From: Candidatus Nomurabacteria bacterium RIFCSPLOWO2_01_FULL_33_24 | GTDB taxonomy: Bacteria > Patescibacteriota > Minisyncoccia > Phycocordibacterales > MFUP01 | Assembly: GCA_001785735.1 (NCBI GenBank) | Contig: MFUP01000014.1 | Span: forward strand, 1 to 56,554 | Length of the DNA: 56,554 nucleotides | Direction: 5' to 3' | Shown here: in pieces, positions 1 through 14,732 of the stretch | Numbering within the stretch: the first letter of the stretch is position 1 | Layout: each line of letters opens with the position of its first letter | Program-made: the position numbers and the translations under genes | Notes under the pieces: generated by a model | What the model saw: the letters and a program-made list of their open reading frames with translations, nothing else | Told to the model about the DNA's origin: nothing | The model's database searches: none

Positions 1-704
1 TGGGTTTCTTTTAGTATGATTATTTCTTTTGGACTAATTGAAATAGAATTATGAACAACAGGACAAAGAACAATTTCTCCCAAATTAGTATCGCTGGAAC
101 AAATTGGAATTAGTTCTAAAGATGAATTAAGATGTTGTAAACTGTTTATTTTAGTAATCCCAAAAACATTAAGTTTGGCATAAAACTCCTGCAGAGGTGC
201 CTCTCCTCCGCCTGGAGGTGCCTCTCCTCCACCTGCTTCTTCGCCCCTTCCCGGTCCTTGAGCTAAAACTGTCGGGGTTTTAATTAATTTTTTTGAAAAA
301 AAAGTCAGAATATTTTTCCCAATATTTGGATATTGAAAAGCGGTATTATTTTGTTGACTTTCCTGATACTCACCTTGTTGCTCTTGTCCCGGAATTGGAA
401 TCCCCGGATAACTTTGGGCACTTAAGGAGGGATCGCCAACAACTACCACGTCATTCGTCCCGACAGACAGCCAAGTATTATAATAAGTAGCCAAACTACC
501 TAACTCTAAACCACCATTCTTTGTTTGGTCAGTTGGACCAATATTTAAAGGGGTTGGCGTATTATTAGCTGGGGGGATTACTCCTATGGGTGGCCCATTC
601 CAGGCATGCAAATAACTAAAACCAATACTCAAAACAAAACCTATTAAAGCAATCTTTGCTATGGTCATTAAATCTTTTTTTATATTTTTGGTATTCATTC
701 TCAT
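1..704 (-). CDS. hypothetical membrane-anchored protein, partial (3' end beyond left window edge)
   Basis: Absent from the supplied ORF track because it is edge-truncated. Manual minus-strand translation from ATG at 704 (MRMNTKNIKKDLMTIAKIALIGFVLSIGFSYLHAWNGPP...) stays open to base 3. It has one N-terminal hydrophobic helix, then a Pro/Gly-rich region with tandem GGGEAP-PGGGEAP (about nt 190-240). It starts 19 nt after the stop of the giant gene, on the same strand. Confidence 0.55.
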   Translation of the reverse strand, partial: MRMNTKNIKKDLMTIAKIALIGFVLSIGFSYLHAWNGPPIGVIPPANNTPTPLNIGPTDQTKNGGLELGSLATYYNTWLSVGTNDVVVVGDPSLSAQSYPGIPIPGQEQQGEYQESQQNNTAFQYPNIGKNILTFFSKKLIKTPTVLAQGPGRGEEAGGGEAPPGGGEAPLQEFYAKLNVFGITKINSLQHLNSSLELIPICSSDTNLGEIVLCPVVHNSISISPKEIIILKET

Positions 705-723
705 GACTAATTTTACTATAAAT

Positions 724-3700
724 CTATATTTCTTCAAAGATTATCTCTGGTAGTGGATTAATAGGGCTATTATTTGTAAGAATCACTGAGTCAGAAACAT
801 AGACAGAAGGATCAATCTCGCTCTGACAAGTAATAGTGAGAGTAACGGGTCCAGGATAAGGACTAACAATAACGCTAGTCTTTGTCCCAGAAGTTGCAAA
901 ATTAGTGTCAGTATTCCAAACAGGAGCACCAAAAGAACTTGTGGCATTACAACTATTAGCTAATAAATTATTCCCAGACCAGCGTAAATCAACTGTCCCC
1001 GGAATCATATCTTGAGGAGGAACATTGGCAGGATCAGGAATAAAATTACTATAAGTTAAGTTTACTGTTGGAGTTAAAATTTGTTGAGAAACAACTTCTG
1101 TATCAAAGAAATGATTATTAGAAGAATCAAGACAATCTATTACATAAACGGTTGGGTTCTCTGGGGTTTCTACTTCAAGAACTGGCCCCAAAGGACTATT
1201 AGAAGTATTAGGGATAGCAATCGCTGTTCCTGTCCCAGCAGGATCCCAGTTAGCAGTTGTAATTTTCCCAGAATAATTAGAGATATCCGAGGAAGGAAGA
1301 AGGGCAGAAATTCTTGGAATAAAACTATTGTCAAAACTGTAAGCTAAACAGCTGTTGAGGTCACCAGGAGCAAAAGTATTCGTTCCCCACCTAAGACCAG
1401 TTTCATATTTTAAACTAGCAGGATTGAAAGGAGCCGGAGTTAATCCAGACAAAGCTTGAAGGTAAAGATTCCCTTCGGGATTATATTCACATGGCAAAGG
1501 CGAACCTGTGTTGGTAGCTAAAGGATCACTACAATAACCAGACATATAAATACAATCACCGTCAGAATTAATAGTCATTCCGGCTGGTAAACTATTTTGA
1601 GTTCCTAGAATATTAGGACACCAGTCTGGACCAGGATCAGGAAGACAATTACCATCAACTAAATTAAATCCAAGGGGAACAACTAATTGAATATTTGGGA
1701 TATTTGGACAAACATCTTCTGGTGGCAAAATTGTGATGGTGGTGGTATCAGCCACAATATTTTCATTTCTTATTTTATTATCAGGACTTGAGGAGGTAAT
1801 TATCTTAAATCCTGTCGTCTCTGACCATAAAATAATTGTTCGGTTAGTTGAATCTCTTGGATCAACTACCGCAGTAATATTAAATATTCCATTAGGAGAA
1901 TTATCGGGATGGGAATTAATATCATCTGTTATTTCAGCAACAATTGTAGAAATACTTGTCCAAAATCCCTTTCGTTTAGTGATTAAGATACCGTTGATAG
2001 TTATTTCATAATCAATTGTTCCTCCTGTTTCAAATATTATTTTAGAAATCAAAGTATCGGCATTAGGATCATTTCTCAGACACTCAATATCATACTCTTT
2101 TACCACTGAGGTATTATTAGTATTTGTATTTACTAAATCTGTTTGGAGAATTGTTTCGCGCCCGGTTGGATCAACTAATAAACTATAATTCCAATCTACT
2201 CCGAGAGCGGAACAACTGCCGGGTTTGGTGTCAGAACCAGTCCATTCAAGAACAGCATCTGCTCCGGGAGCAGAAGGAACAGTAATATCATCATAATAAT
2301 TTCCGGCTGGGAGAGGATCGGTGGCTTCGGTATTTTTAGCTTTAATATCTATATTAGCTCCGAGTAAAACTGGAACACTGTCATTGACTGTTCCTCCAAA
2401 TTCATCATCACAAGTAATAGTGAAAGTAGCTGATTGAGTAAGATTTATACCAACAAAAGCTAAGCCACTTCCTGGGGTTGGAGCATTATCAGAAAGACTT
2501 TGCCCATTATACCACATAGGGATGCCAGCATTAGATGGAACAACCGAGGCAACACAACTTCCTGAAACAATATTTCTTGTTTTCCAAGTTAGTTTTATTA
2601 ACCCACCAGTAGCAGGTAAACTCAAAGAATTTTTTCCATCTGCCCTAATATCAACAATAGGAACTGTGGGAGGAAGAACATTAACATAAGCTTTTTGGTC
2701 GGCTGTCTTTTCTGTTGCTTCTGTTGCTAACCCGGAAACTCCTTGACAAGAAGTTTGGTAAACAAAAACTTTAGTTCCTATTAATGTTTGAACATCTCCA
2801 GTCGTCCCATAGTTAGTAATAATAAATTTAGAATTATTTGTATTTTTAATATCTAAGGTAATAGTAATAGTGTTATTTCCGTTCCAAACAGCGGTTACTC
2901 CTGAAGAATATTTTTTGTAATTAATCTCATTTGTCAATGTTTCAGCGTCAGCTACTAAATCTCCAGAATAAGTGACACTATCAATAGTTGCTCCATTGAG
3001 TTCAACCTTAAAACGACCTCCAAAAATAGAATTTTCTGTTAAAGTAATAATTCTACTAAAAATTGAGTTGGTTGGAGAGAAAGTAGAACGAAAAGTAGGA
3101 AAACCCATACTATCTCTACTTAAGTCTTTTACCGGGAAAGAGTTAATAAGAACTGTTTCATTCTTGGCCATCGCCACTACCTCATTTGAAACATTATTAT
3201 TAGGATCGTTGATTTCATTGGCTAGATTAATAGCGGAATTACTTAATGGAACAATTAAGGGAGTACTGATTGGATTATTATTGATAGCTAAACCGAAAGT
3301 GCCACTATTTCCACTCAAAACAACTCCCGCTAAATTGGTGTAAGATGATTGAATAATAATTTTAGCGTTATCTCCATAAACAATATTATTGGTCATATCC
3401 TCTATGGTAAATTGAGAATTTGAATAAACAGTAATTATATTTCCTGATGAGATGGCATTGATGCCAGTAGTGCCAGAATTTGAATTAATCAACGAAACTA
3501 AATTTGAAGCGGATAAGGTAAGATTATTATTAACTGTTTTATCATAAGTATTACTATTAATTTTTAGATGAAAAGTTCCGCTAGTTCCATATAATTGAGC
3601 ACTGGCTGATAAAGTATTAGAAGCAATGGTTCCGCTATTATTTAAGACTCCTGTGGTATTAAGCCCTGGACCAGGATGAAGCGGATTTTGGGTCGCGTGC

Positions 3701-6700
3701 CAACTTGGATCAGTCCAATTCCAATCACTACTAGAACCATAATTATTTGTGGATACGCAAGTGCTATAATCAACATTTCCACCCCACCACCTAATATCAA
3801 CTTCACTTCCAGAAGGAACATTGATAAGAGTATCTGGTCCAGAGGGTGTCTTTTCAACAGTTAAATTAACATAAGGATCTGGGAGAACATCAACAGTAAC
3901 TTCTTTAGGAGTCCCATCACAAGTAAGAATATATTTATAAGTATCAATTAAGGCAATGGTCATATTGGCAGGATTATATGAGTCTGTATAGAAACCATTA
4001 TTTAATTCAAAATTATCAGCCCCATCAGTAATAGAAAATGGCGTTGGTGAAGTAATTACAATTTTTGAACCAAAAGCTGTTGCTGTTAAGTTTGGAACAG
4101 TTGTTTGAATATCATTTATAAACAAAGCTATTAATTCTGCATCACTATCTGTGTCACCTGAGGCTAAAAATGGCCCAAAATGATTACCATTAATAACCAA
4201 CCAAAATTGATCATTAGTTCCAAGATCAATCCCCTCAATTCCTCCTGATAAAGTAACAATTGCTTTTTTGGTATAGGCTTGAGTACCATCATTAATTAAA
4301 GGACCTTGTGTTTCTTGACCTCCTAAAGGATTTTTATTTCCACTCCAGTTTCCAGTAGCTAGACAGCTAGACATATCTGTCGCTTCCCAAGTTAGTTCTG
4401 CCTCTGCTCCTGAAGGAATAACAATGCTGTCTGTTGGAGTATTCGGACTTGGTTTGGTATCTGGATCATCGCTTTTTACATCAAAAGTTATTCCTGAAGT
4501 ATCTTCCTCCTCTGGAAGAACAGTCACATATACTTCTTTTTTATCTATCATTCCTCCGGTTCCCGGAACTCCTTCGCATTGAACTTCGTAGGCTTTAACT
4601 ACTGTCCCTAAAGTCAGTTTTGGAGAAGAAGTTGTAATATCAAAAGTACCAGCCTGAGTAGCAACACTCTCAAGATTTACTTTAATGGTCTTGCCATTTG
4701 GAATAGCAATAATGCCAGGAATAGTATTTAATTTGGTTGATAAGCCAGAGGCATCATTTACTAAGTTTGAAGGATCAGAGGGATTTTGATATTTTGTTAT
4801 TCCATTTACTTCTATTCCCCAAGTATCTCCAGAACCTGTTGCGTTTCCAGACAAAGTAAGCATTTTTGTATAGGCATCAATAGTACTAACTGAAATTGAA
4901 TTAATGCTACTGGAAGTAGTATCTTTAGTTGGGAATGAATTAATAATAACAACATTATTTTTAGAAATTGCGGTTACTAATTCAGAAACAATCGGATCAG
5001 AGTTTATGGCATCTCTTAGGGCATTAGCAATTGCTGATTTTGTGCTCTCAGAAGCAGAGATTGGAGATCCATCAATTTCAATTTCATAAGTTCCTCCGAT
5101 ATCATCAATTGTTACTGTCGCTAATTGAACAGAGGATGTCCCAGCCCCATTGTTCTTCAGGAAATTATTTGTTTCTGCTGATCCTGCCCCTAATCCAAAA
5201 GGAGGTAAAACTTTGGTAGCATGATACCCGGGACCTTGCCAAATCCAATTAGAATCTCCGTCATTGTTGCGCGCCCTGCAATTATTAGTATCATATTTAA
5301 CATTATTTCCCCACCATTTTAGCCTGACTCGTTCTCCCGCTGAATTAGGACTAATAGAAACAACTGAACTTGGACCAACATTAGTAATAGTTCCTTCAAC
5401 AGTAAGTCCAACTTCTGGCTCTGGCAAAACAGTGACTGTAACACTTTCAGGATAATTATTTCCAGCAACATCCTGACAAGTTAAGATATATTCATAAGTA
5501 TCAACTAGGGCAATATTGATAATTAGATTTCCTCCGATTGTTCCTTCGTAACCATAATAACTTCCGGGATTAGGATTAGGTCTTTTTTCAGTAATTGTAA
5601 ACCACGAAGAAGAACTAGAAACTTCTATGGTATTTGTCCCGGTAGAAACAGCTGTTATATATCCCGGAAATGTGTCGTTAATTTTATTAATTAAAGCAGT
5701 ATAAGAATCAGTAAAATTATTATTAAAGGGAACTTCAACGGCTGTTCCTTCAATAATGACTCCAAAATAATTTCCAGAATTTCCCGATAAAGTCAAGATT
5801 GCTTTTTTGGTGACAGTTTGAGTGCCATTATTAATTAATATTCCTGTTGATTCCCCTTCTGTCCAAGGATCATTAAGATTAACTCTGGTTGGGGTGCTAG
5901 TTAAAACATCTGGAGTAATTCCCATTCCAGACAAAGTTACAATTTCGCCATTAGCAATGGCGTTAATGTTTGGCAAAGAATCCCAATCACTAGCAAAAGC
6001 GTGAGCTGCTTGAGCTGATGATGCGAAAGATTTAGTAACATAACCCTGCCCCGGAAGATTAATCTTAATTCTAAATTGTCCAGATCCAGAAAAAATAATA
6101 TCTCTCTGGAAAGTGGAAGAGATCCCTCTAGGACCTGTTCCCATAGGAGCGGCCCAATCTCCGCTGGCTTGACAACTGGTCATGTCCCCCATAGACCATT
6201 TTAATAAGGCTTCCGCTCCCGAAGGAATAATAATATCGGGATAGGCGACGGGAGAAGGAGAAGGTTGAGTATTTGGATTATCACTTTCTACGGTAAATAT
6301 TCCCGACGAAGACCCAATTTCAACTCCGGTTGGAAAAACAGAAACAAAAGCGCTATCAAAAACTTCAGAATCAGAATTAGGAACTCCTCCACAATAAAGA
6401 TCGTATTCATGAACAACCGTTCCAACAACAAAATCTCCGCTGGTAGTAATATCTTTTTGAAGTTTAAAATAAGAACCATTATAATTTGTATCAATTGAGT
6501 TGAGAGTGATATAAATATCCGCTCCCTCCGCTTTAGCCGTAAAGTATTTATTAAGGCTATTATCATTATTTATTTTATTTGCCAAATCTTGAGCATAATC
6601 AGAAAATGGAAGAATTGGGGTCTGCCAAGATAAAGAAGATATTGAGATACCGTTAATTTCAATGCCATATTTTTGAGAACCATTAGTTAAACTATTGGTA

Positions 6701-9700
6701 ATAGTTACTTTCCTCGCCCTAGAAGAAGAAATGGGGTTTATTGTTATTTTATTTGAAAGACTGGACTTATCAACAATCCGAAGGGAAGAAATAATTATTT
6801 CTCCATCCACTACCGTTGCAACCACCTCTTGATTAACAGATGAATTATTATTTATATTTGTAGCTAGAGTTGAAGTATCGCTCCCCGTAATTACCGTTCC
6901 ATTAATTTCCACTCCGGCTGTTCCTGAATTAACCACAACCGATCCAAGTTGAGTCTGAACAGGTTGGATAATTAATTTTACATCTCCAGAACTATTATCT
7001 AAAACATTAAGAAAATTACCGCTATCTTTTCTAATAATAATTTGTGATCCACTTACTGAAGCTGAGTATTGCGAATGGGAATCAATAGCATCACTTAATT
7101 CAGCTATTGGATCAGGAACACTAGATAAAACTGAGAAATTATTACTAAAATCAACCGTTAATTTAAAAGTTCCAGTAGCTCCTGTGGATTTTGACAAGGC
7201 AACGCTCATAATATTCATATCGCTCTTAATTAAACCTCCATCACCAGTATTTTCCACGGGAACATTAAGATTTCCTCCCGGGCCAGGTGGCGATAATAAG
7301 GGTTGAGTAGCGTGAAAACCGGCGCTTGTCCATTGCCAATCTCCGGGGGGAGTATTTCTTGCATCATAATTATTCTTAGCCCAACAAGTGTCATAATTGA
7401 CATTATGAGCCCACCATTGAATATCAATCGTTTCTCCGTCAGAAACTGCTTCTGCTTTTCTATAAACTAGGTCTGATGATTTCTTCACGGATAAATCATT
7501 GTCTGCTTCAGGAAGAACATTCACAATAACTTTTTCAGATGGGGTAATCGGAGTCCCACTTGAATCATTACAACTTAATTCATATTCAAAAGTTTTAACT
7601 AAGGCTATTGCCAAATTTGCGATTCCGGTTGAATCAACCGCTTGTCTAATTGTAAAAGGAGAAGAAGAGATTATCTCTATTAATGGAGCGGAGGGGTCTG
7701 GTTGAGAGGCGATAAGATTAGGTATTCCCAAATTATTAATTTCTATCACAATGAAACCAGTATCGACTTTTTTATCAAAAGAAGAAGTAACAAGGTTTGT
7801 TGTATAATCTGTTCCTCCTATTCCAAAAATAATTTTATATTCTCCGCCCGTCGTGCTTGGTTCTACGGTTAAAATTGCTTTTTCGGTGTCAGTCGCTGTT
7901 CCGTCATTGATTAAAGGCCCCTCTGTTTCACTGCCAGAATCAGCTTTACTGCCAGTAGTAGTCCAATCACCAGAAGCAAGACAAGATCCCGGATCAATAT
8001 CGGTAGCGACCCATTCCAAATCAATTTCCGCTCCCGAGGGAATAATAATATCGGAATAGGCGGCGGGAGAAGGAGAAGGTTGAGTATTTGGATTATCGCT
8101 TTCTACTGTTAGAGTTATTCCGGTTTGAGGTTCGATTCCTATCGGCAAAACAGTCACATAGGCCTCTTCATAAGCGGTAGTTCCATCCACTCCCAAACAA
8201 TTAAGATTGTATTCTCTAACTTTTGTCCCCACCGTGACATCTCCAGTCATCGTTGAACTCTTAGTTAAAGTAAAGGCAGAAGCAGTATTACTATTATTAG
8301 AGGCATTGAGAGTAATAGTAATTTTATTTCCATCTAAGGTGGTGGTTGTGCCAGCTATAGATATTAGATTAAAAATTTCAAGAGCGGCCTCAGTAGCTGT
8401 TTCTCCCGGACCAAGAGGATAAGAATAAGAGGATCCATTAATCTCAACCTTAAAAGTGTCTCCTGAACTTCCTCCGGTGAAGGTGATTGTTTTTGTTCTA
8501 GTTGTCGGATCAGAAAGAGAAGAAACTGTTGTTGTGGCTGGATTATTTGGTCCAAAATCAATGTGGCCAACAACACTAAGGGCGGTAATTATTACGGTAG
8601 TTCCTTCTCGGTGAGCAATTACTTTTTTGTTAACAGAAGTATTTGTATTTATGGCAATAGCCAGATTTTTAGCTATTTTCCCTTCAGATAAAGCTGGGGA
8701 AAAAGCAACACTAATCGGAGTCCCGTTAATAATCGCTCCATAGAAGGCAAGATTAATACTATTATTTACTGTAATTGACCCTAACTTTGTAGCAATTGAT
8801 TCAATCATAATGTGAGCATTGCCACCAGAGGTAGAGGAGGAATCAATATTAAATAAAGTTGAAGAACTTAAAGTAATTACTGGACCATTTTGAGTGGTAG
8901 TTAAACCAGTAATCGCCAATGAATCAATTTCATTCTTTAAACTAAGAGCATCGGCTGTAAGATCTCCAGTGGCCGAGACATTAATAGGTTGGGAATTAAT
9001 TTTTATTTCAAAAGTGCCAGCGGTTCCTGATAAAGTAGCCGAAGCCACAGTCGTATTAGCGGTTAATCCATCATTTTCTAATTGAAAAGTTGCTTGAGTT
9101 CCTATCCCTGAAGGATCAAGGGGTGGTTTGGTGGCGTGAAAACTAGGAAAACCATTAAACCACCAATCAGAGAAGGACCCATAATTATTAGCGCCATAAC
9201 ATTGGTTGTATTTTACATTATGAGCCCACCATTTAAGAATCACATCATCCCCGTCATAAACAACAGCTGTCGATGGACTAGCAGAAAATGGGTCATCAAC
9301 TATCAAGCTAACTGATGGTTTTGGAAGAACAGTGACGGTGACACTTTCTGGATAATCATTTCCACCAGCATCATGACAAGTTAAGATATATTCGTAAGTA
9401 TCAACTAAGGCAATATCAATATTCCCGTCTCTGTATGCGTCACTTGTATTAAAATCGGTAACAGAGAAAGGTCCGCTAACTGATTCTAAAATCATGACAT
9501 ATGGATTTAACGGGTCTTTGCTGGCAAGAACAATTGGGCTTAAAACTGGATCAGCATTTATATATAAAACCATGGCATCAACGGCTAAATCGGCAGTGGT
9601 GGAAGAACTTTTTATGACTGAGTAGATGTTATTGATAGTAATTTCAAAAGTACTGTCATAGCCTGAGAAAGTTAGAATTGCTTTTTCGGTGTCAGTAGCT

Positions 9701-12700
9701 ATCCCGTTATTGATTAAGGGAGAAGTTAATTGAAAACCTGAAGTATTAATCGCATTGCTCCAATCTCCGGAAGCATCACAGCTGGTCATATCGGTTGTTG
9801 ACCAAACTAATTTAGCTATCTCTCCTGAATTAATAGTAATATCAGAAGCGGAAGCAGGAGGATTAGGATCTCTCTCAACGGTGAAAGTTAAACTAGGGTT
9901 AATTCGTTTTCCAGCCGGGAGAATAGTGACATAACTATAATCTTCTGTTGAAAAATTGGTAGAAGAAATCCCCTCACAAGAAAGCTGATAACTATGGACA
10001 GTTGTTCCGATGGTGATGGCCCCGACGGTAGAACCGCCATCAATAATTTCAAAGAGGGGAGCATCGGAATTATTTATCTCTGAAGTCAGAGTAATAACAT
10101 TGTATTTGGAGGAAAAATCTACATCACTGTGACTCTGAGTCAAATTACTACCTAAATTATGGGCTTCCTGATGAAGAGTTTTGGTATTGATTGTCTCTGA
10201 AACCGGAGAAGGACTGGTAAATGATAATTTATTTAGGGAAGCCTTAAAAGACCCGGTAACAAGATTACTGGTCTTATCTAAGAAAATCTTTTTTTCTCTG
10301 GCAGAAATTGAACTAATTGAAATATCGGCACCAGAAAGAGGAAGAATATCTTTTTTGATTTCTGTTTTAAAAGAGTTTATAATGACTACATTTTGTTCGG
10401 CAGTTGCCCCAACACTAGAAACAAAAGTGGAATTAGAAACCGAGGGAGCAGAACCACTATTATCTTCATTTATTTTTTCTGCTAAATCTTGGGCTGTGGT
10501 ATTTTTATCTGTATTCCAAGGAACGGAAGAAGTGATTCCGTTAATTTCAACAACCACTGTTCCACTAGTTCCATTTATGGTAATGGTTGCCAGTCGAGTA
10601 GTAATTGATTCAACAGAAATAAAAGCATCTCCCCCAGAAGTATCTAAGGCGTCAATATTAAAAGAATTGGTGTCATCATAAATATCACTATTAGATTTAA
10701 TTGTTATTATCTCATCAACCGCCGTGGCCGAAACGCCAGCAATATCAGCGGTTATTAATCTTGCTAATTCTGTAGCGACTTGAGCTAAAGTTGGATAGGT
10801 TGAACCAAGAGTAACACTTTTAGTTATTCCCTTAATCTTTATTTTAAATTCTCCTCCAATATTGCTTCCGGACAAGATGGCGGTAGCAGCGGTAGTAAAA
10901 ATTAAGCTCCCGTCATTAACCGCCTCTGTTGGGATAATTTGAGTAGTTCCCGATGATCCATCATCTCCTATATTAAACAAAGAACCTGTTGAGGAACTTG
11001 TAATTATTATTGTTTTACCATCTGCATCTGTAGGATCAATGGAAGCGGTAACAAAGAAAGCTTCACCATTGGTAGCAATATTGTTTATCTTGTCTTTTAA
11101 TTTATCGGCTGTTATCTTTAAAGAAGTATCAAATAACTGAATAATCGATTGATCATTAATTCTAATATTAAAATTATTACCAATAATGCCACTAACAAGT
11201 TTTATTTTAACTTCTTTAAGAGTTCCAATTCCCTGTTTTCCTGCTACCGGAGTCAAAGACCCTTTATGTCCATGATAACTAGGATCTGACCAATCCCACT
11301 CTCTTCCTTGAAAAGAATTTTCTGTGTAACTATTTTCAGCTTGGCAAGAACTGTAATCTACATTATGACCCCACCATTTGAGGCGTCCCCAATCATCACC
11401 GCCCATCCAGTCAGGAAGAACAGAATAATCTGCTCCGGAGACAACACTGACCGCCGGTAAAAAGCCCCCTCCGGTATTTTTAGTTCTAGCAGTTAAATCA
11501 GAAGTTGGTTCTGGTAAAATTGTAATTGTGGCTGTTTCAGTAAAAATATTATTGTCAACATTGGTACAAATTAAGGTATACTTTTTAACAATTGTGTACC
11601 CAATCTCAATATTAGGTGGAGAATTACTATTGACATCTTTTTCTGTCCCTTCGTCTGTGATAGTGAATGGAGTTGTAGAAATAATAATTATTTCTGATGT
11701 ACCCGGTTCTCGTGATACTGTCATCCCAGAAGCATAGTTATCAATATAAGAAGAAATATAGCTTACCAACATTTGAGCAGTACTTTCGGGACTTGATTGA
11801 GCAAAAATGGGACCAATTGGATTTCCATCAATCTTAAGACCAAATTTATCAGAAGAACCAGAAGTGCCTCCCGAGACAGTAAGAATTGCTTTTTCAGTAC
11901 TAGTAGCTGTTCCGTCATTAATTAAAATTCCCGTGGTTTCTCCTTCGGTTTTTCCAAGAGACATATTTCCTGTCCCAGAGATACTAACGGTAAAAGAAGT
12001 AGAGCCGCTAGAATCAATAAAAACTTTAGACGATAAGTTTGACCCGTTATGGGCAGTAGCTTTAATAGCGCTAACCCCGGCAGAATTTATTGCTTGGGCT
12101 AAATTATCGGCAGTGGTTGATAAATTAGTATCATAATTTTCGGAGACAGAAATAGAATTTAGAGTGGTATCAGTAGGAATAATATTAAGATTAAAAGTAC
12201 CAGAAGTTCCAGTTAATGTTACTTCTTGAGAAAGAACAATGGCTGGGTTTGGAGAGTAAGGATTGCGACTGGTTCCCAACCCAAGTCCAATGTTTCCACC
12301 GGCCCAATCACTACCAACGCCAGAAGAGGCTGATTCACAGATAAGGGAATCGTCATCGCTGTCCCAAGTTAAAATTGCTTCCGCCCCAGAAGGAACAGTA
12401 AGATCAGTAGTTTTCCCAGAGGGATAAGCGTAAGGATCATCACTTTCAGCTTTTAACCCGAGAGAAAAAACATAATCAAGAACTCCCGCATAGACTGTTC
12501 TGCTGATACTACTAATAGACCCTAAAGTAGGACAAGAAAGGGTATATTTTCTTACGGTACTGATAACATCCATTTCTCCTGCATCCCCAGTAGTGGAATT
12601 AGAAACAGTGAATGAATTTCCTGTTTTTGTTTCAATTAAAATAATACTAATACCAAGGATCTCATCATATAAATGTTTAACTTCTACCAAAGAATTAAGA

Positions 12701-14430
12701 GTTGGATTATTTTCAATTCTTTCTTTTATATCATCAGTTGTTCCATAGGAAGAATTTTTCCAAGTTGTATTAATGGTTTCTGTCCCAATTGTTATTCCAA
12801 AATTTGATGGAAGCCAATGTCCAGCATTCCCCCGGACAGCAATTAATGCCAAATCCGTAGTATTAGAACCAGAACTCAAAAGCGAACCGGTTGATTCTCC
12901 TGTTTCAAAAATAGGATCCCCTACTATGGAAAATGATGTGGAATTTGTTGGAATTTTTGGAATAATGGAAACAGTGGTCGCTGGTTTGAATATATTTGCG
13001 GCTGCTCCTAACCAAGAATCATAATAACGAGCATAAATAATTAAATCACTACCCTGAGTTTCAGCAAAATATAATGTCTTCAAGGAACCACTATTAATCT
13101 TATTAGCTAAATCAATAACTACATTATTTATATTATTATTGTTAGTTGAAGAGATTGATACTCCGCTTAGAGAAAGATTAAAGGTACTTTTTTCGGGATT
13201 AAGGAGATCAATTGGAGCAAAAAAAGTTATTTTCTGTTTTAAGTTTGTTGGGGAAACAATTGCTGTCGCGCCCCCATTGGTGCTCATAGTTACTTGAATA
13301 TCAACATTTGGATAAAAAGAGGATAAAATTATATCTCCCCTAATTGAAGAAGCGCAAACATAACTAGGACACCACACATCATTAACTTGCTTAGCTAAAG
13401 ATTTAGCCGCGTCATTCGCCGATAAGGCCGGGTTATTAGAAGAAAGAGGGGCCTTATATATCCAAGGATTGGAACCACCATAAAAATCATAAAGATATTT
13501 CCAAAGTTCCAAGGAAAAATAACCAGTACCGTCAAGTTCAACTTTTGTAGTGATTCTCCGGCCAGACGAACTTCGTCTATTCCCGGGATTTGGCCAATCA
13601 GCTTGAGCCGTACAAGCATCATAATTTGATTGTTTAGCAAGATCCCTCCCCCTCCAATTAAGAACAGCTTGATTCCCAGTTTCAACAACAACAACATTTG
13701 CTGGGCCAAAAGGAGGAGGAAGAAGATTCTGATCTTTCTCTATCGTAAGATCTAAAAAAGGTATTCTGAGTTTGGCTTTTACTCCCTGACTTCCGCTAAA
13801 AAAATTAATCCACCCAAAAACATTTGATCCCCAGGCATTCCCGATAAAAGAATTTTCATTTGTTGAGCTTCCTGAATTTTTATAAATATGTTTATAAGTA
13901 ACCCCGCCATTACCAGTTCCATCAGGAGAAGAATGATTAGCTCCCGAAAGTTCAATCCAACCATCCCAGCCACCAAGTTTGGCTCCTGTTAAACTTTCAG
14001 TAGCCCCGCTACAACCAGTTAAATAGACTTTGCAAGCCCGAATCCAACCAGTTACTTTCCCAAAATTGACATTATTTATTGGAGGAGTTAATTCAACTTT
14101 AGCCTTGCAATCATTAGGATCAGTTGGTTGATCAGGACAAATATCCACAGAAAAATCTGGATTAAAATTAATCCAACCAATATTATCTGACCAAGCCATT
14201 CCAGAGAGTTCCCCTGTCATATCGTCCATGGCCACTTCCCATCCGGAACCAACACAAGAAGAATCATTTAAACAAGAAAAACTGATCCAACCGATATTAT
14301 CAGACCAAGCATAACCTCTTAGGGTTCCATACGCCCCGGCCGCCAAGGTTTGATTAGTAAAAAGAGAAAAACCAAAAATAAACAAAAAAATAAAAATGAC
14401 TAAATATGAGATTATATACTTTTTACTCAT
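724..14430 (-). CDS. giant modular secreted/cell-surface protein (4,568 aa), function unknown
   Basis: Single uninterrupted minus-strand frame. I place the start at ATG 14430 (MSKKYIISYLVIFIFLFIFGFSLFTNQTLAAG, signal/anchor-like). The 14431-14613 extension overlaps the upstream small ORF in another frame. The body has N-terminal W-x-DNIGWI-F repeats, five super-repeats marked by WW[AG]xNVxY..C, and many ~80-100 aa units with a central IN dipeptide. Repeated Cys-containing beta-sandwich-like modules end in Y.L.C....V.VLP, and the C-terminus has Cys-bracketed CPNI..G.Q...P.G repeats. Confidence 0.85.
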   Translation of the reverse strand: MSKKYIISYLVIFIFLFIFGFSLFTNQTLAAGAYGTLRGYAWSDNIGWISFSCLNDSSCVGSGWEVAMDDMTGELSGMAWSDNIGWINFNPDFSVDICPDQPTDPNDCKAKVELTPPINNVNFGKVTGWIRACKVYLTGCSGATESLTGAKLGGWDGWIELSGANHSSPDGTGNGGVTYKHIYKNSGSSTNENSFIGNAWGSNVFGWINFFSGSQGVKAKLRIPFLDLTIEKDQNLLPPPFGPANVVVVETGNQAVLNWRGRDLAKQSNYDACTAQADWPNPGNRRSSSGRRITTKVELDGTGYFSLELWKYLYDFYGGSNPWIYKAPLSSNNPALSANDAAKSLAKQVNDVWCPSYVCASSIRGDIILSSFYPNVDIQVTMSTNGGATAIVSPTNLKQKITFFAPIDLLNPEKSTFNLSLSGVSISSTNNNNINNVVIDLANKINSGSLKTLYFAETQGSDLIIYARYYDSWLGAAANIFKPATTVSIIPKIPTNSTSFSIVGDPIFETGESTGSLLSSGSNTTDLALIAVRGNAGHWLPSNFGITIGTETINTTWKNSSYGTTDDIKERIENNPTLNSLVEVKHLYDEILGISIILIETKTGNSFTVSNSTTGDAGEMDVISTVRKYTLSCPTLGSISSISRTVYAGVLDYVFSLGLKAESDDPYAYPSGKTTDLTVPSGAEAILTWDSDDDSLICESASSGVGSDWAGGNIGLGLGTSRNPYSPNPAIVLSQEVTLTGTSGTFNLNIIPTDTTLNSISVSENYDTNLSTTADNLAQAINSAGVSAIKATAHNGSNLSSKVFIDSSGSTSFTVSISGTGNMSLGKTEGETTGILINDGTATSTEKAILTVSGGTSGSSDKFGLKIDGNPIGPIFAQSSPESTAQMLVSYISSYIDNYASGMTVSREPGTSEIIIISTTPFTITDEGTEKDVNSNSPPNIEIGYTIVKKYTLICTNVDNNIFTETATITILPEPTSDLTARTKNTGGGFLPAVSVVSGADYSVLPDWMGGDDWGRLKWWGHNVDYSSCQAENSYTENSFQGREWDWSDPSYHGHKGSLTPVAGKQGIGTLKEVKIKLVSGIIGNNFNIRINDQSIIQLFDTSLKITADKLKDKINNIATNGEAFFVTASIDPTDADGKTIIITSSSTGSLFNIGDDGSSGTTQIIPTEAVNDGSLIFTTAATAILSGSNIGGEFKIKIKGITKSVTLGSTYPTLAQVATELARLITADIAGVSATAVDEIITIKSNSDIYDDTNSFNIDALDTSGGDAFISVESITTRLATITINGTSGTVVVEINGITSSVPWNTDKNTTAQDLAEKINEDNSGSAPSVSNSTFVSSVGATAEQNVVIINSFKTEIKKDILPLSGADISISSISAREKKIFLDKTSNLVTGSFKASLNKLSFTSPSPVSETINTKTLHQEAHNLGSNLTQSHSDVDFSSKYNVITLTSEINNSDAPLFEIIDGGSTVGAITIGTTVHSYQLSCEGISSTNFSTEDYSYVTILPAGKRINPSLTFTVERDPNPPASASDITINSGEIAKLVWSTTDMTSCDASGDWSNAINTSGFQLTSPLINNGIATDTEKAILTFSGYDSTFEITINNIYSVIKSSSTTADLAVDAMVLYINADPVLSPIVLASKDPLNPYVMILESVSGPFSVTDFNTSDAYRDGNIDIALVDTYEYILTCHDAGGNDYPESVTVTVLPKPSVSLIVDDPFSASPSTAVVYDGDDVILKWWAHNVKYNQCYGANNYGSFSDWWFNGFPSFHATKPPLDPSGIGTQATFQLENDGLTANTTVASATLSGTAGTFEIKINSQPINVSATGDLTADALSLKNEIDSLAITGLTTTQNGPVITLSSSTLFNIDSSSTSGGNAHIMIESIATKLGSITVNNSINLAFYGAIINGTPISVAFSPALSEGKIAKNLAIAINTNTSVNKKVIAHREGTTVIITALSVVGHIDFGPNNPATTTVSSLSDPTTRTKTITFTGGSSGDTFKVEINGSSYSYPLGPGETATEAALEIFNLISIAGTTTTLDGNKITITLNASNNSNTASAFTLTKSSTMTGDVTVGTKVREYNLNCLGVDGTTAYEEAYVTVLPIGIEPQTGITLTVESDNPNTQPSPSPAAYSDIIIPSGAEIDLEWVATDIDPGSCLASGDWTTTGSKADSGSETEGPLINDGTATDTEKAILTVEPSTTGGEYKIIFGIGGTDYTTNLVTSSFDKKVDTGFIVIEINNLGIPNLIASQPDPSAPLIEIISSSPFTIRQAVDSTGIANLAIALVKTFEYELSCNDSSGTPITPSEKVIVNVLPEADNDLSVKKSSDLVYRKAEAVSDGETIDIQWWAHNVNYDTCWAKNNYDARNTPPGDWQWTSAGFHATQPLLSPPGPGGNLNVPVENTGDGGLIKSDMNIMSVALSKSTGATGTFKLTVDFSNNFSVLSSVPDPIAELSDAIDSHSQYSASVSGSQIIIRKDSGNFLNVLDNSSGDVKLIIQPVQTQLGSVVVNSGTAGVEINGTVITGSDTSTLATNINNNSSVNQEVVATVVDGEIIISSLRIVDKSSLSNKITINPISSSRARKVTITNSLTNGSQKYGIEINGISISSLSWQTPILPFSDYAQDLANKINNDNSLNKYFTAKAEGADIYITLNSIDTNYNGSYFKLQKDITTSGDFVVGTVVHEYDLYCGGVPNSDSEVFDSAFVSVFPTGVEIGSSSGIFTVESDNPNTQPSPSPVAYPDIIIPSGAEALLKWSMGDMTSCQASGDWAAPMGTGPRGISSTFQRDIIFSGSGQFRIKINLPGQGYVTKSFASSAQAAHAFASDWDSLPNINAIANGEIVTLSGMGITPDVLTSTPTRVNLNDPWTEGESTGILINNGTQTVTKKAILTLSGNSGNYFGVIIEGTAVEVPFNNNFTDSYTALINKINDTFPGYITAVSTGTNTIEVSSSSSWFTITEKRPNPNPGSYYGYEGTIGGNLIINIALVDTYEYILTCQDVAGNNYPESVTVTVLPEPEVGLTVEGTITNVGPSSVVSISPNSAGERVRLKWWGNNVKYDTNNCRARNNDGDSNWIWQGPGYHATKVLPPFGLGAGSAETNNFLKNNGAGTSSVQLATVTIDDIGGTYEIEIDGSPISASESTKSAIANALRDAINSDPIVSELVTAISKNNVVIINSFPTKDTTSSSINSISVSTIDAYTKMLTLSGNATGSGDTWGIEVNGITKYQNPSDPSNLVNDASGLSTKLNTIPGIIAIPNGKTIKVNLESVATQAGTFDITTSSPKLTLGTVVKAYEVQCEGVPGTGGMIDKKEVYVTVLPEEEDTSGITFDVKSDDPDTKPSPNTPTDSIVIPSGAEAELTWEATDMSSCLATGNWSGNKNPLGGQETQGPLINDGTQAYTKKAIVTLSGGIEGIDLGTNDQFWLVINGNHFGPFLASGDTDSDAELIALFINDIQTTVPNLTATAFGSKIVITSPTPFSITDGADNFELNNGFYTDSYNPANMTIALIDTYKYILTCDGTPKEVTVDVLPDPYVNLTVEKTPSGPDTLINVPSGSEVDIRWWGGNVDYSTCVSTNNYGSSSDWNWTDPSWHATQNPLHPGPGLNTTGVLNNSGTIASNTLSASAQLYGTSGTFHLKINSNTYDKTVNNNLTLSASNLVSLINSNSGTTGINAISSGNIITVYSNSQFTIEDMTNNIVYGDNAKIIIQSSYTNLAGVVLSGNSGTFGLAINNNPISTPLIVPLSNSAINLANEINDPNNNVSNEVVAMAKNETVLINSFPVKDLSRDSMGFPTFRSTFSPTNSIFSRIITLTENSIFGGRFKVELNGATIDSVTYSGDLVADAETLTNEINYKKYSSGVTAVWNGNNTITITLDIKNTNNSKFIITNYGTTGDVQTLIGTKVFVYQTSCQGVSGLATEATEKTADQKAYVNVLPPTVPIVDIRADGKNSLSLPATGGLIKLTWKTRNIVSGSCVASVVPSNAGIPMWYNGQSLSDNAPTPGSGLAFVGINLTQSATFTITCDDEFGGTVNDSVPVLLGANIDIKAKNTEATDPLPAGNYYDDITVPSAPGADAVLEWTGSDTKPGSCSALGVDWNYSLLVDPTGRETILQTDLVNTNTNNTSVVKEYDIECLRNDPNADTLISKIIFETGGTIDYEITINGILITKRKGFWTSISTIVAEITDDINSHPDNSPNGIFNITAVVDPRDSTNRTIILWSETTGFKIITSSSPDNKIRNENIVADTTTITILPPEDVCPNIPNIQLVVPLGFNLVDGNCLPDPGPDWCPNILGTQNSLPAGMTINSDGDCIYMSGYCSDPLATNTGSPLPCEYNPEGNLYLQALSGLTPAPFNPASLKYETGLRWGTNTFAPGDLNSCLAYSFDNSFIPRISALLPSSDISNYSGKITTANWDPAGTGTAIAIPNTSNSPLGPVLEVETPENPTVYVIDCLDSSNNHFFDTEVVSQQILTPTVNLTYSNFIPDPANVPPQDMIPGTVDLRWSGNNLLANSCNATSSFGAPVWNTDTNFATSGTKTSVIVSPYPGPVTLTITCQSEIDPSVYVSDSVILTNNSPINPLPEIIFEEI

Positions 14431-14732
14431 TGAGATAAGCTGTCTAAAATTTCTTGTTTTTGTTCTAAAGAATAGGTGTCTTCTGATGGGAATTCTTCCA
14501 TTATTTTTATCATTTCTTTTTCGGACAATTCTCTTTGATCCAAAAAACGATTGAAGCCAATGAGAGCCATAACTATTAAAATAACAAGAATAGTAATTAA
14601 AAAAAACTTCCATTTATTTTTTGGGGTTTTTGAAATGATAGCAACTGGTTTTTCAGAATAAGAATAAGAATCTGTTTTTTTGTTTTGATTTTGAAGACTA
14701 AAATCTTGAAATTGATTTTTATTTTCTTCCAT
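14427..14732 (-). CDS. small single-pass membrane protein, translationally coupled to the giant gene
   Basis: 101-aa ORF with one clear TM helix (WKFFLITILVILIVMALIGF). Its stop overlaps the ATG of the giant gene (ATGA at 14427-14430). Confidence 0.6.
   Translation of the reverse strand: MEENKNQFQDFSLQNQNKKTDSYSYSEKPVAIISKTPKNKWKFFLITILVILIVMALIGFNRFLDQRELSEKEMIKIMEEFPSEDTYSLEQKQEILDSLSQ

Follow-up and report, generated by a model that had tools for sequence, protein, structure and literature searches.

The window analysed here, that is the whole 56,554-nt stretch of contig MFUP01000014.1, comes from Candidatus Nomurabacteria bacterium RIFCSPLOWO2_01_FULL_33_24, a member of the Candidate Phyla Radiation (CPR)/Patescibacteria with a genome assembly of 398 kb that is 67% complete; the genomes of its relatives from the same order measure 0.5-1.1 Mb. 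On its minus strand the window carries a giant surface-protein gene (724..14430), whose product is 100% identical to a catalogued protein of 4,568 aa (P0002). The open reading frame (ORF) of this gene extends to 14613 (724..14613, 4,629 aa) and encloses the entire repeat region described below; translation probably does not begin at the mechanical start at 14613. Residues are counted throughout along the 4,629-aa ORF, in which the catalogued protein begins at M62. We consider it likely that this protein is a chain of split immunoglobulin (Ig)-like domains with nested units related to the IN-motif domain of flagellins and FliD (Flagellin_IN, Pfam PF07196). About 14 Ig-like domains were recognised, 10-12 of which are interrupted by unit arrays. 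The predicted features are as follows, from the N- to the C-terminus, with units in nucleotide coordinates, Cys by residue number and WW denoting the codons of a Trp-Trp marker:

14338..14430, minus strand: N-terminal signal peptide or signal anchor (MSKKYIISYLVIFIFLFIFGFSLFTNQTLAA), from a hydropathy scan and the sequence
13729..14337, minus strand: Trp-rich W-x-(D/S)N-(I/V)-GWI-x-F repeats with Cys (aa 93-295), from the translation
12442..13728, minus strand: Z0, probable extra split Ig module with three degenerate units (13246-13530, 12955-13233, 12574-12849)
11458..12441, minus strand: A1, predicted A-type split Ig, units in two different loops (11938-12234, 11605-11892); Cys 759 and 1016 only
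9868..11457, minus strand: B1, predicted B-type split Ig; WW 11371-11376; three clear units (10924-11223, 10621-10896, 10300-10605) and one degenerate (10024-10296); Cys 1090 and 1546 only
9298..9867, minus strand: A2, predicted A-type split Ig, one unit (9439-9699); Cys 1612 and 1746
8083..9297, minus strand: B2, predicted B-type split Ig; WW 9226-9231; units 8791-9060, 8506-8793, 8236-8502; Cys 1805 and 2139
7486..8082, minus strand: A3, predicted A-type split Ig, one unit (7624-7890); Cys 2211 and 2348
6268..7485, minus strand: B3, predicted B-type split Ig; WW 7411-7416; units 6964-7218, 6712-6996, 6430-6720; Cys 2410 and 2741
5398..6267, minus strand: A4, predicted A-type split Ig, units in two loops (5854-6126, 5542-5817); Cys 2814 and 3046
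4459..5397, minus strand: B4, predicted B-type split Ig; WW 5311-5316; two units (4864-5136, 4600-4869); Cys 3112 and 3346
3856..4458, minus strand: A5, predicted A-type split Ig, one unit (3976-4254); Cys 3417 and 3565
2629..3855, minus strand: B5, predicted B-type split Ig; WW 3784-3789; units 3349-3621, 3067-3345, 2782-3060; Cys 3619 and 3956
2344..2628, minus strand: intact, unsplit Ig-like domain of the kind seen in the modules; Cys 4020 and 4068
1714..2316, minus strand: probable Ig-like domain in which a unit (1759-2061) occupies a third site; Cys 4134 and 4178
727..1716, minus strand: C-terminal region with Cys-rich CPNI-type short repeats, then more Ig-like domains (aa 4540-4611)

A preliminary description of this DNA had placed five super-repeats at 3784-11376, in which Ig-like modules were thought to be interleaved with 25 or more flagellin-IN-like units. 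A regular-expression search for its principal marker, WW[AG].NV.Y, returned exactly five matches (aa 1080, 1795, 2400, 3100 and 3609), reproducing every WW codon position it had given (11371, 9226, 7411, 5311 and 3784) and the spacings of 2145, 1815, 2100 and 1527 nt. The second motif, PSGAE..L.W..C.ASG.W, was found by the same means in four exact copies (aa 741, 2192, 2797 and 3400) and one variant, NSGEIAKLVW...C.ASGDW, at aa ~1596. The third, Y.Y.L.C...V.VLP, was found nine times, and a tenth copy (aa ~1009-1037) was recognised by eye and with the Ig profile introduced below. The three unit sequences quoted as examples are present at aa 838, 1984 and 3797, and a DNA repeat finder recovered the periodicity as a 5-copy and a 4-copy family (D1, D2) with matching spacings. 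The repeats are thus real, but their extent had been drawn too narrowly: the repeat body reaches from ~12441 to 2629, with additional units outside it at 12574-13530 and 1759-2061. Similarly, the count of 25 or more units is right for the whole protein, where an iterated hidden Markov model (HMM) seeded with one unit identifies 24-26 unit cores of ~93 aa each, but not for the interval, since only ~16-17 lie between the first and the last WW marker. About 22 units fall within the five super-repeats, 3 lie upstream (aa 362-680) and 1 lies near the C-terminus (aa 4185-4285).

When the last super-repeat was compared with the other four in a six-frame search, it matched them with E-values of 7e-70, 2e-50, 5e-28 and 1e-27 at 36-40% identity. 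Judged by their sequences, the five super-repeats are old, diverged duplications and not an assembly artefact. Individual units have positional counterparts across the super-repeats (e.g., B2u1-B5u1, B2u3-B5u3/B4u2 and A1u2-A5u1); therefore, it appears to be the whole super-repeat, with the units already inside, that was duplicated. Two pairs of DNA segments stand out from the remainder of the super-repeats by a far higher similarity, namely 6211-6294 and 8026-8109 (84 nt at 94% identity) and 5396-5521 and 9296-9421 (126 nt at 82% identity). Both pairs fall where modules join (…TVESDNPNTQPSPSP… and the A-type C-half), and their unusual similarity suggests local gene conversion inside the giant gene.

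The relationship of the units to Flagellin_IN was examined with sequence profiles in both directions. Scanned singly against Pfam, three of 17 units have Flagellin_IN as their best family, with scores of 20.9, 18.6 and 16.5 bits (E 4e-4 to 1e-2) that fall below the gathering cut-off of 22.7 bits; these matches are co-linear with model positions 3-52 of 55, and no other Pfam family recurs among the singly scanned units. The unit consensus scores 14.7 bits (E 0.036) against the same model, and the best score in a six-frame search is 16.1 bits. In an alignment of 19 units the Ile of the central I-N dipeptide shows at least 90% conservation, and the residue next to it is in the majority Asn. We built a unit profile of 90 positions from these 19 units and searched it against all PDB sequences, where the top match was a Legionella flagellin (6b5b_F; E 9.8e-5, over 74 of the 90 positions). 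The matched segment of 6b5b_F by itself scores 39.4 bits against Flagellin_IN, i.e., it is a true member of the family. Among 1.84 billion representative proteins, the profile matched 471 at E <= 1e-3. The best of these (P0003; 1,392 aa, E 4.4e-66) has eight units and carries both Flagellin_N and Flagellin_C, and is therefore a giant flagellin; the same two termini are found in a further match, P0026. In P0015 an over-threshold Pfam Flagellin_IN domain (aa 442-479) coincides with the unit-profile match (aa 436-479). Of 73 smaller matches, most have no Pfam domain, and a few are phage cement or minor capsid proteins, flagellins or hook proteins (FlgE-type). Conversely, a profile made from 18 units of four flagellins (P0003 and P0026, which have both Pfam termini, and P0036 and P0039, which were judged by N-terminal sequence only) matched the giant protein in 12 units with an E-value of 2.6e-31 (Z = 1e6). 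These results support the view that the units are remote homologues of the flagellin/FliD IN-motif domain. In flagellins, FliD and hook proteins this domain makes up exposed outer parts, and related decoration domains occur in sheath, baseplate and tail proteins of phages. The preliminary description, which had called them IN-like, is hence borne out as regards remote homology, by the two-way profile matches and the predicted fold (see below), but not as regards Pfam membership, where the best score of 20.9 bits stays short of 22.7.

We further modeled one unit (2782-3060, in B5) with AlphaFold2 (AF2) using 19 paralogues. The model, with a predicted local-distance difference test score (pLDDT) of 73, shows the order beta-beta-beta-alpha-beta-beta-beta. 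A Foldseek search of the PDB with it returned nearly exclusively outer domains of phage sheath, baseplate and tail proteins together with outer domains of flagellins and FliD, the flagellar matches including the cell-surface flagellin p5 of Sphingomonas sp. A1 (2zbi/3k8v), Pseudomonas aeruginosa FliD and FliC D2/D3 (PDB entries including 5fhy, 8erm and 5h5t). For an IN-motif domain the published structure is the beta-domain of p5, which is known to resemble the finger domain of T4 gp11 (PMC9751261). The evidence from unit sequence and from fold thus points the same way, each being modest by itself.

The Ig-like part of the protein was clarified by comparison with related genomes. A six-frame search of 60 genomes from the same order matched only ...PSGAE..L.W...C.ASG.W, i.e., the N-half of an Ig domain; in these relatives the PSGAE stretch makes up the first half of an uninterrupted Ig-like domain of ~80 aa with two cysteines (e.g., ...SGQSTTLSWNAVHVNSCTASGSWSGSKTTSGAVSTGPLTQDATYTITCVYEGGSVSDTVNV), a domain for which no Pfam family match was obtained here. 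An Ig HMM was constructed from seven such intact 80-aa domains. In A2-A5 its positions 3-53 match the N-half (aa 1588-1634, iE 1.8e-14, in A2; aa 2189-2239, iE 3.4e-9, in A3; iE 1.1e-6 in A4; aa 3395-3444, iE 2.4e-14, in A5; iE being the independent E-value), and its positions 47-79 match the C-half 100-200 residues downstream (aa 1736-1767, iE 4e-4; aa 2337-2371, iE 0.007; iE 2e-5; and aa 3555-3579, iE 0.12, respectively). Stripped of their inserts, the five A-type modules align with the intact domain over template columns 5-79 of 80 (hhalign probability 98%, E 2.8e-13). The main insertion point lies between G-P-L-I-N-D-G-T and ..D-T-Y-x-Y-x-L-T-C; in A1 and A4 a second unit occupies an earlier loop, after ASGDW. 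The same splice point is spanned when the B-type is aligned to the A-type, through the C-half and the E strand, with an E-value of 6.8e-9. Thus, the PSGAE, Y.Y.L.C and WW pieces, which had been described as separate Ig-like modules interleaved with units, appear instead to be N- and C-halves of two types of Ig domain; for the A-type, the alignments show domains split by nested insertion of units, and the halves would reunite in three dimensions.

The distribution of cysteines conforms to the same layout. The body of the protein (aa 725-3995, 3,271 residues) has exactly 20 Cys, two per module and one per half, 134-456 residues apart, and the ~22 units within it have none. With one Cys in each half and none in the units, the latter give the impression of having been inserted into loops, and the pattern is the signature expected if each pair forms the disulfide of its own domain and so closes the base of the insertion. 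The pattern of two Cys per module could also serve as a search signature for split Ig domains of this kind. Outside the body, Z0 has unit HMM matches at aa 389-432, 476-528 and 604-648 and weak Ig halves (N-half aa 309-355, iE 0.004; C-half aa 673-708, iE 0.1) with Cys 334 and 694. The intact domain at 2344..2628 is matched by the Ig HMM at aa 4002-4023 and 4049-4086 (iE 6.6e-7). In the probable domain at 1714..2316, the unit lies between ...YDIEC and ...TTTITILPP, apparently in the F-G loop, with a weak unit HMM match at aa 4201-4264 and a weak Ig N-half at aa 4117-4141.

As we picture it, the giant protein would be a secreted or N-terminally anchored surface fibre. Its body (aa ~725-3995) consists of five two-module super-repeats, and would thus be a succession of ten Ig-like domains of the A and B types, probably belonging to the two-cysteine kind that is common in large proteins of related genomes. 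After the G-P-L-I-N-D-G-T strand, the chain would exit the Ig domain through 1-4 serial ~93-aa alpha/beta units and then re-enter it for the last two Ig strands (..Y-x-Y-x-L-x-C ... V-x-V-L-P), and the conserved Cys that flank the insertion would probably pair as the domain disulfide, clamping the base of the loop. The Ig backbone may be some tens of nm long, with the unit arrays standing off it as side clusters in the manner of a 'bottle-brush'. These clusters could offer binding or shielding surfaces, by analogy with the outer domains of flagellins, FliD and phage proteins, which are exposed, variable and sometimes ligand-binding (PMC9751261). The same analogy would favour a role as an adhesin for a host cell or substrate, or as decoration of the surface, attachment being the most plausible of these for an episymbiotic CPR cell; that the giant protein is specifically an adhesin we put forward only tentatively. 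We also entertain, as a possible but rather doubtful scenario, that serial arrays of decoration domains fold as closed side-clusters within a single loop, and that a flagellum-less CPR lineage acquired and multiplied the domain to build a hitherto undescribed 'bottle-brush' fibre, whose disulfide-clamped Ig backbone would bear ten to twelve rosettes, each made of 1-4 IN-type domains. If true, this would provide a compact natural model for the folding of tandem outer domains in giant flagellins, and possibly represent the host-attachment organelle of an episymbiont.

Several observations weigh against the proposed architecture and homology. No unit reaches the Pfam gathering score for Flagellin_IN, and the whole protein has no Pfam match even at E <= 1 and no NCBIfam match. 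The Foldseek matches of the unit have query-normalized template-modeling scores (TMq) of 0.4-0.68 and E-values of 3.7e-3 or worse, obtained with a model of medium confidence. The N-half of the B-type, which bears the WW motif, matches the Ig HMM weakly (iE 0.04-0.9), its resemblance being a faint one to L-x-W-x-x-x-N-A-x-x-C. An AF2 model of the whole module A5 with five paralogues has a pLDDT of 56 overall, with 70-85 in the unit and below 50 in the Ig part, and a fold search with it was uninformative on the Ig question; because of this low score, the reunion of the Ig halves is argued from sequence only. Lastly, serial arrays of 2-4 units in one loop require both ends of the array to meet. 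The same closure puzzle of tandem units has been stated for giant flagellins, which still assemble (PMC6248924).

This last difficulty would disappear if each F-G half joined the A-E half of the module after it in a circularly permuted Ig domain that encloses the disulfide, with the unit arrays as spacers between beads on a string, as the arrays would then need no end-to-end closure. Such an arrangement would accord with the C-half being followed by the next N-half within ~25-40 aa, which brings the paired Cys to ~50-75 aa of each other, and with the failure of AF2 to show a nested Ig domain. However, in the intact domain A-E comes before F-G, as is seen both in the relatives and in the copy at aa 4002-4086 of the giant protein, and the spliced A-type modules align with it from end to end. 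Moreover, the ~5-8 residues from V-x-V-L-P to the next A strand (gItftVesD) are a usual tandem-Ig linker and look too short for a crossover, and the units in two loops of the N-part of A1 and A4 fit loop insertion, not a permutation in two pieces. We therefore hold the permuted arrangement to be improbable. A different form of nesting, in which units would be inserted recursively into one another ('matryoshka' fashion), was considered and ruled out because every unit is complete, with the same strand order and a ~93-aa period.

With regard to the units, the sub-threshold Pfam scores and the weak Foldseek E-values could also be accounted for by convergence, or by a compositional bias of Ser/Thr/Asn/Ile-rich beta-alpha-beta units whose helix ends in I-N, on some other small alpha/beta fold; the unit profile does in addition marginally match protein G B1 and a fibronectin-type domain, and spurious LysM scores arise in some relatives. 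Against this stand the profile matches to true flagellin units in both directions (E 4e-66 and 2.6e-31), which span 70-85 of the 90 positions and so include strands beyond the helix; the matched segments of the flagellin and of P0015 are themselves Pfam-significant for Flagellin_IN, and the fold-search list is nearly all of the flagellin/FliD/phage-sheath class. A lack of homology to the IN domain would hence be surprising. It is far less credible still that the giant protein itself belongs to a flagellum or a phage, whether as an aberrant flagellin or hook protein of giant size or as the sheath or fibre protein of a prophage, even though the nearest relatives of its units occur in flagellins and hook proteins as well as in phage cement or capsid proteins and in a protein of 2,906 aa that bears the name 'phage tail sheath gpL-like'. 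A Pfam scan of the giant protein found neither Flagellin_N (PF00669) nor Flagellin_C (PF00700), nor any other family. Flagellin_N was likewise found neither in its own genome, as far as the 67% complete assembly goes, nor in the 60 genomes of the same order, in a search in which flagellated controls were matched. The protein has an N-terminal signal or anchor, and its gene is flanked by housekeeping genes (nusA and H+-pyrophosphatase) or genes for small membrane or surface proteins. In PHROGs the whole modules had no match, and only the unit consensus gave weak matches to tail proteins.

Outside this locus, the unit is rare in the phylum. The unit profile detects it in two of 401 Patescibacteria genomes, namely this one and one of 400 sampled. 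In the other genome, a 1,403-aa ORF (L015, G258:C1:1079924-1080178) has a single unit (…DTFTVKITNDD…LTAAINADPTLSGFVTAAT…) within a large Thr/Ala-rich surface-type protein. A word-based search with residues 3390-3990 among candidates of 2.5-8.1 thousand residues recovered only the giant protein itself, and one with a 1,409-aa piece among candidates of 0.77-2.45 thousand residues recovered nothing; no close relative with this layout emerged from them. Among the profile matches are, nonetheless, multi-unit proteins of 876-3,209 aa (P0004-P0012 and P0022) with 9-22 units each. Flagellin termini are absent in P0004, P0007, P0009 and P0012, the ones that were scanned with Pfam. Their source names, where given, are 'hypothetical protein' (from metagenome-assembled genomes of Gemmatimonas and Sulfuritalea) or 'phage tail sheath gpL-like'. 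The latter name belongs to P0008 (2,906 aa, JGI/IMG), which has 16 unit-profile matches; should the name be correct, P0008 would represent a sheath of giant size in which decoration domains form a long array. As such multi-unit proteins are not rare in metagenomes, the use of IN-type units as the bulk of non-flagellar giants is not unique to this protein. The preliminary description had held that the motif was not known in this capacity, which agrees with the literature we searched on Flagellin_IN, PF07196 and IPR010810, comprising a review of Sphingomonas flagellins and unrelated papers only, but not with the databases, which hold these proteins of 900-3,200 aa with 9-22 units.

Viewed against known systems, the layout is an unusual one built from known parts and does not amount to a system of a new kind. 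Like the Flagellin_IN domain, the unit has a ~55-aa core with a beta hairpin-helix-beta arrangement and a central I-N, and its ends would return to the host domain; in contrast, the host here would be an Ig-like domain of a non-flagellar protein, as against the D1 helices of an axial flagellar protein. Giant flagellins (PMC6248924; P0003) share the serial arrays of this kind of unit in an 'out-and-back' host, but theirs is one array between the D0/D1 termini of a protein that polymerizes into a filament, whereas here ten to twelve arrays would occupy successive Ig loops of a single signal-bearing chain of 4,568 aa. The best structural matches of the unit model (TM-score about 0.5-0.68) are outer insertion domains of phage proteins, such as the sheath of cyanophage A-1(L) (8kee), the finger domain of T4 gp11 and the tail tubular protein B of T7-like phages. 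As the units here would be, these are loop-inserted, surface-exposed decoration; the units differ in having only weak PHROG sequence matches and no phage context. Finally, the protein resembles giant Ig-repeat adhesins, including large two-cysteine Ig-repeat proteins of its CPR relatives, in its N-terminal signal or anchor, its long series of Ig domains and its probable nature as an extracellular fibre. It differs from them in that no repeats-in-toxin (RTX) sequence, type I secretion system (T1SS) signal, LPXTG motif or known Pfam adhesin domain was found in it, and in that nearly every Ig domain would be interrupted by nested unit arrays. With respect to anchoring, the sole hydrophobic segment found by the hydropathy scan is aa 62-90, and no second transmembrane helix is seen; there is no C-terminal LPXTG sorting signal with a hydrophobic tail, the lone LPATG being internal (aa 3999, within an Ig strand), and no GGxGxD motif or Pfam RTX match. 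The C-terminal region (727..1716) is accordingly free of sorting signal, transmembrane helix and RTX motif.

The value of the finding is structural and evolutionary, with function being inferred. If the assignments hold, the decoration domain of flagella and phage tails would be a general loop-insertable module, used at least 22 times in the fibre of a flagellum-less bacterium. The regular 10-12-fold layout with its strict two-Cys signature would be a convenient test case for tolerance of nested insertion. It would likewise be one for the folding of tandem outer domains in an 'out-and-back' topology, the question raised for giant flagellins (PMC6248924). Giant surface proteins of the CPR are also prime candidates for host attachment. 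To our knowledge, almost no giant CPR surface protein has an assigned architecture.

Among the remaining parts of the protein, the Trp-rich repeats (AWSDNIGWISF, AWSDNIGWINF and AWGSNVFGWINFF) come directly after the signal sequence, and the region that holds them (13729..14337) has no family match. The giant gene is accompanied on the same strand by two smaller ORFs:

14427..14732, minus strand: upstream ORF of 101 aa with one hydrophobic helix; no Pfam match
3..704, minus strand: downstream ORF, truncated where the window ends (233 aa or more), whose product has an anchor helix at its N-terminus and a Pro-rich segment; no Pfam match

The TGA stop of the upstream membrane-protein ORF overlaps the ATG of the giant gene (ATGA, 14427-14432, minus strand), and this stop/start overlap suggests translational coupling of the two. 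The downstream ORF starts 19 nt past the stop of the giant gene, and in its product the anchor helix is followed by W-N-G-P-P-I-G-V-I-P-P-A-N-N-T-P-T-P-L-N-I-G-P-T-D-Q-T-K-N-G-G-L. This anchored product may be a partner surface protein of the giant protein, and the upstream membrane protein may be a partner too. On the other side of the locus, the nusA and H+-pyrophosphatase genes lie on the plus strand. Within the giant gene itself there is an antisense ORF on the plus strand (10181..10681, 166 aa), which is most likely a chance open frame.

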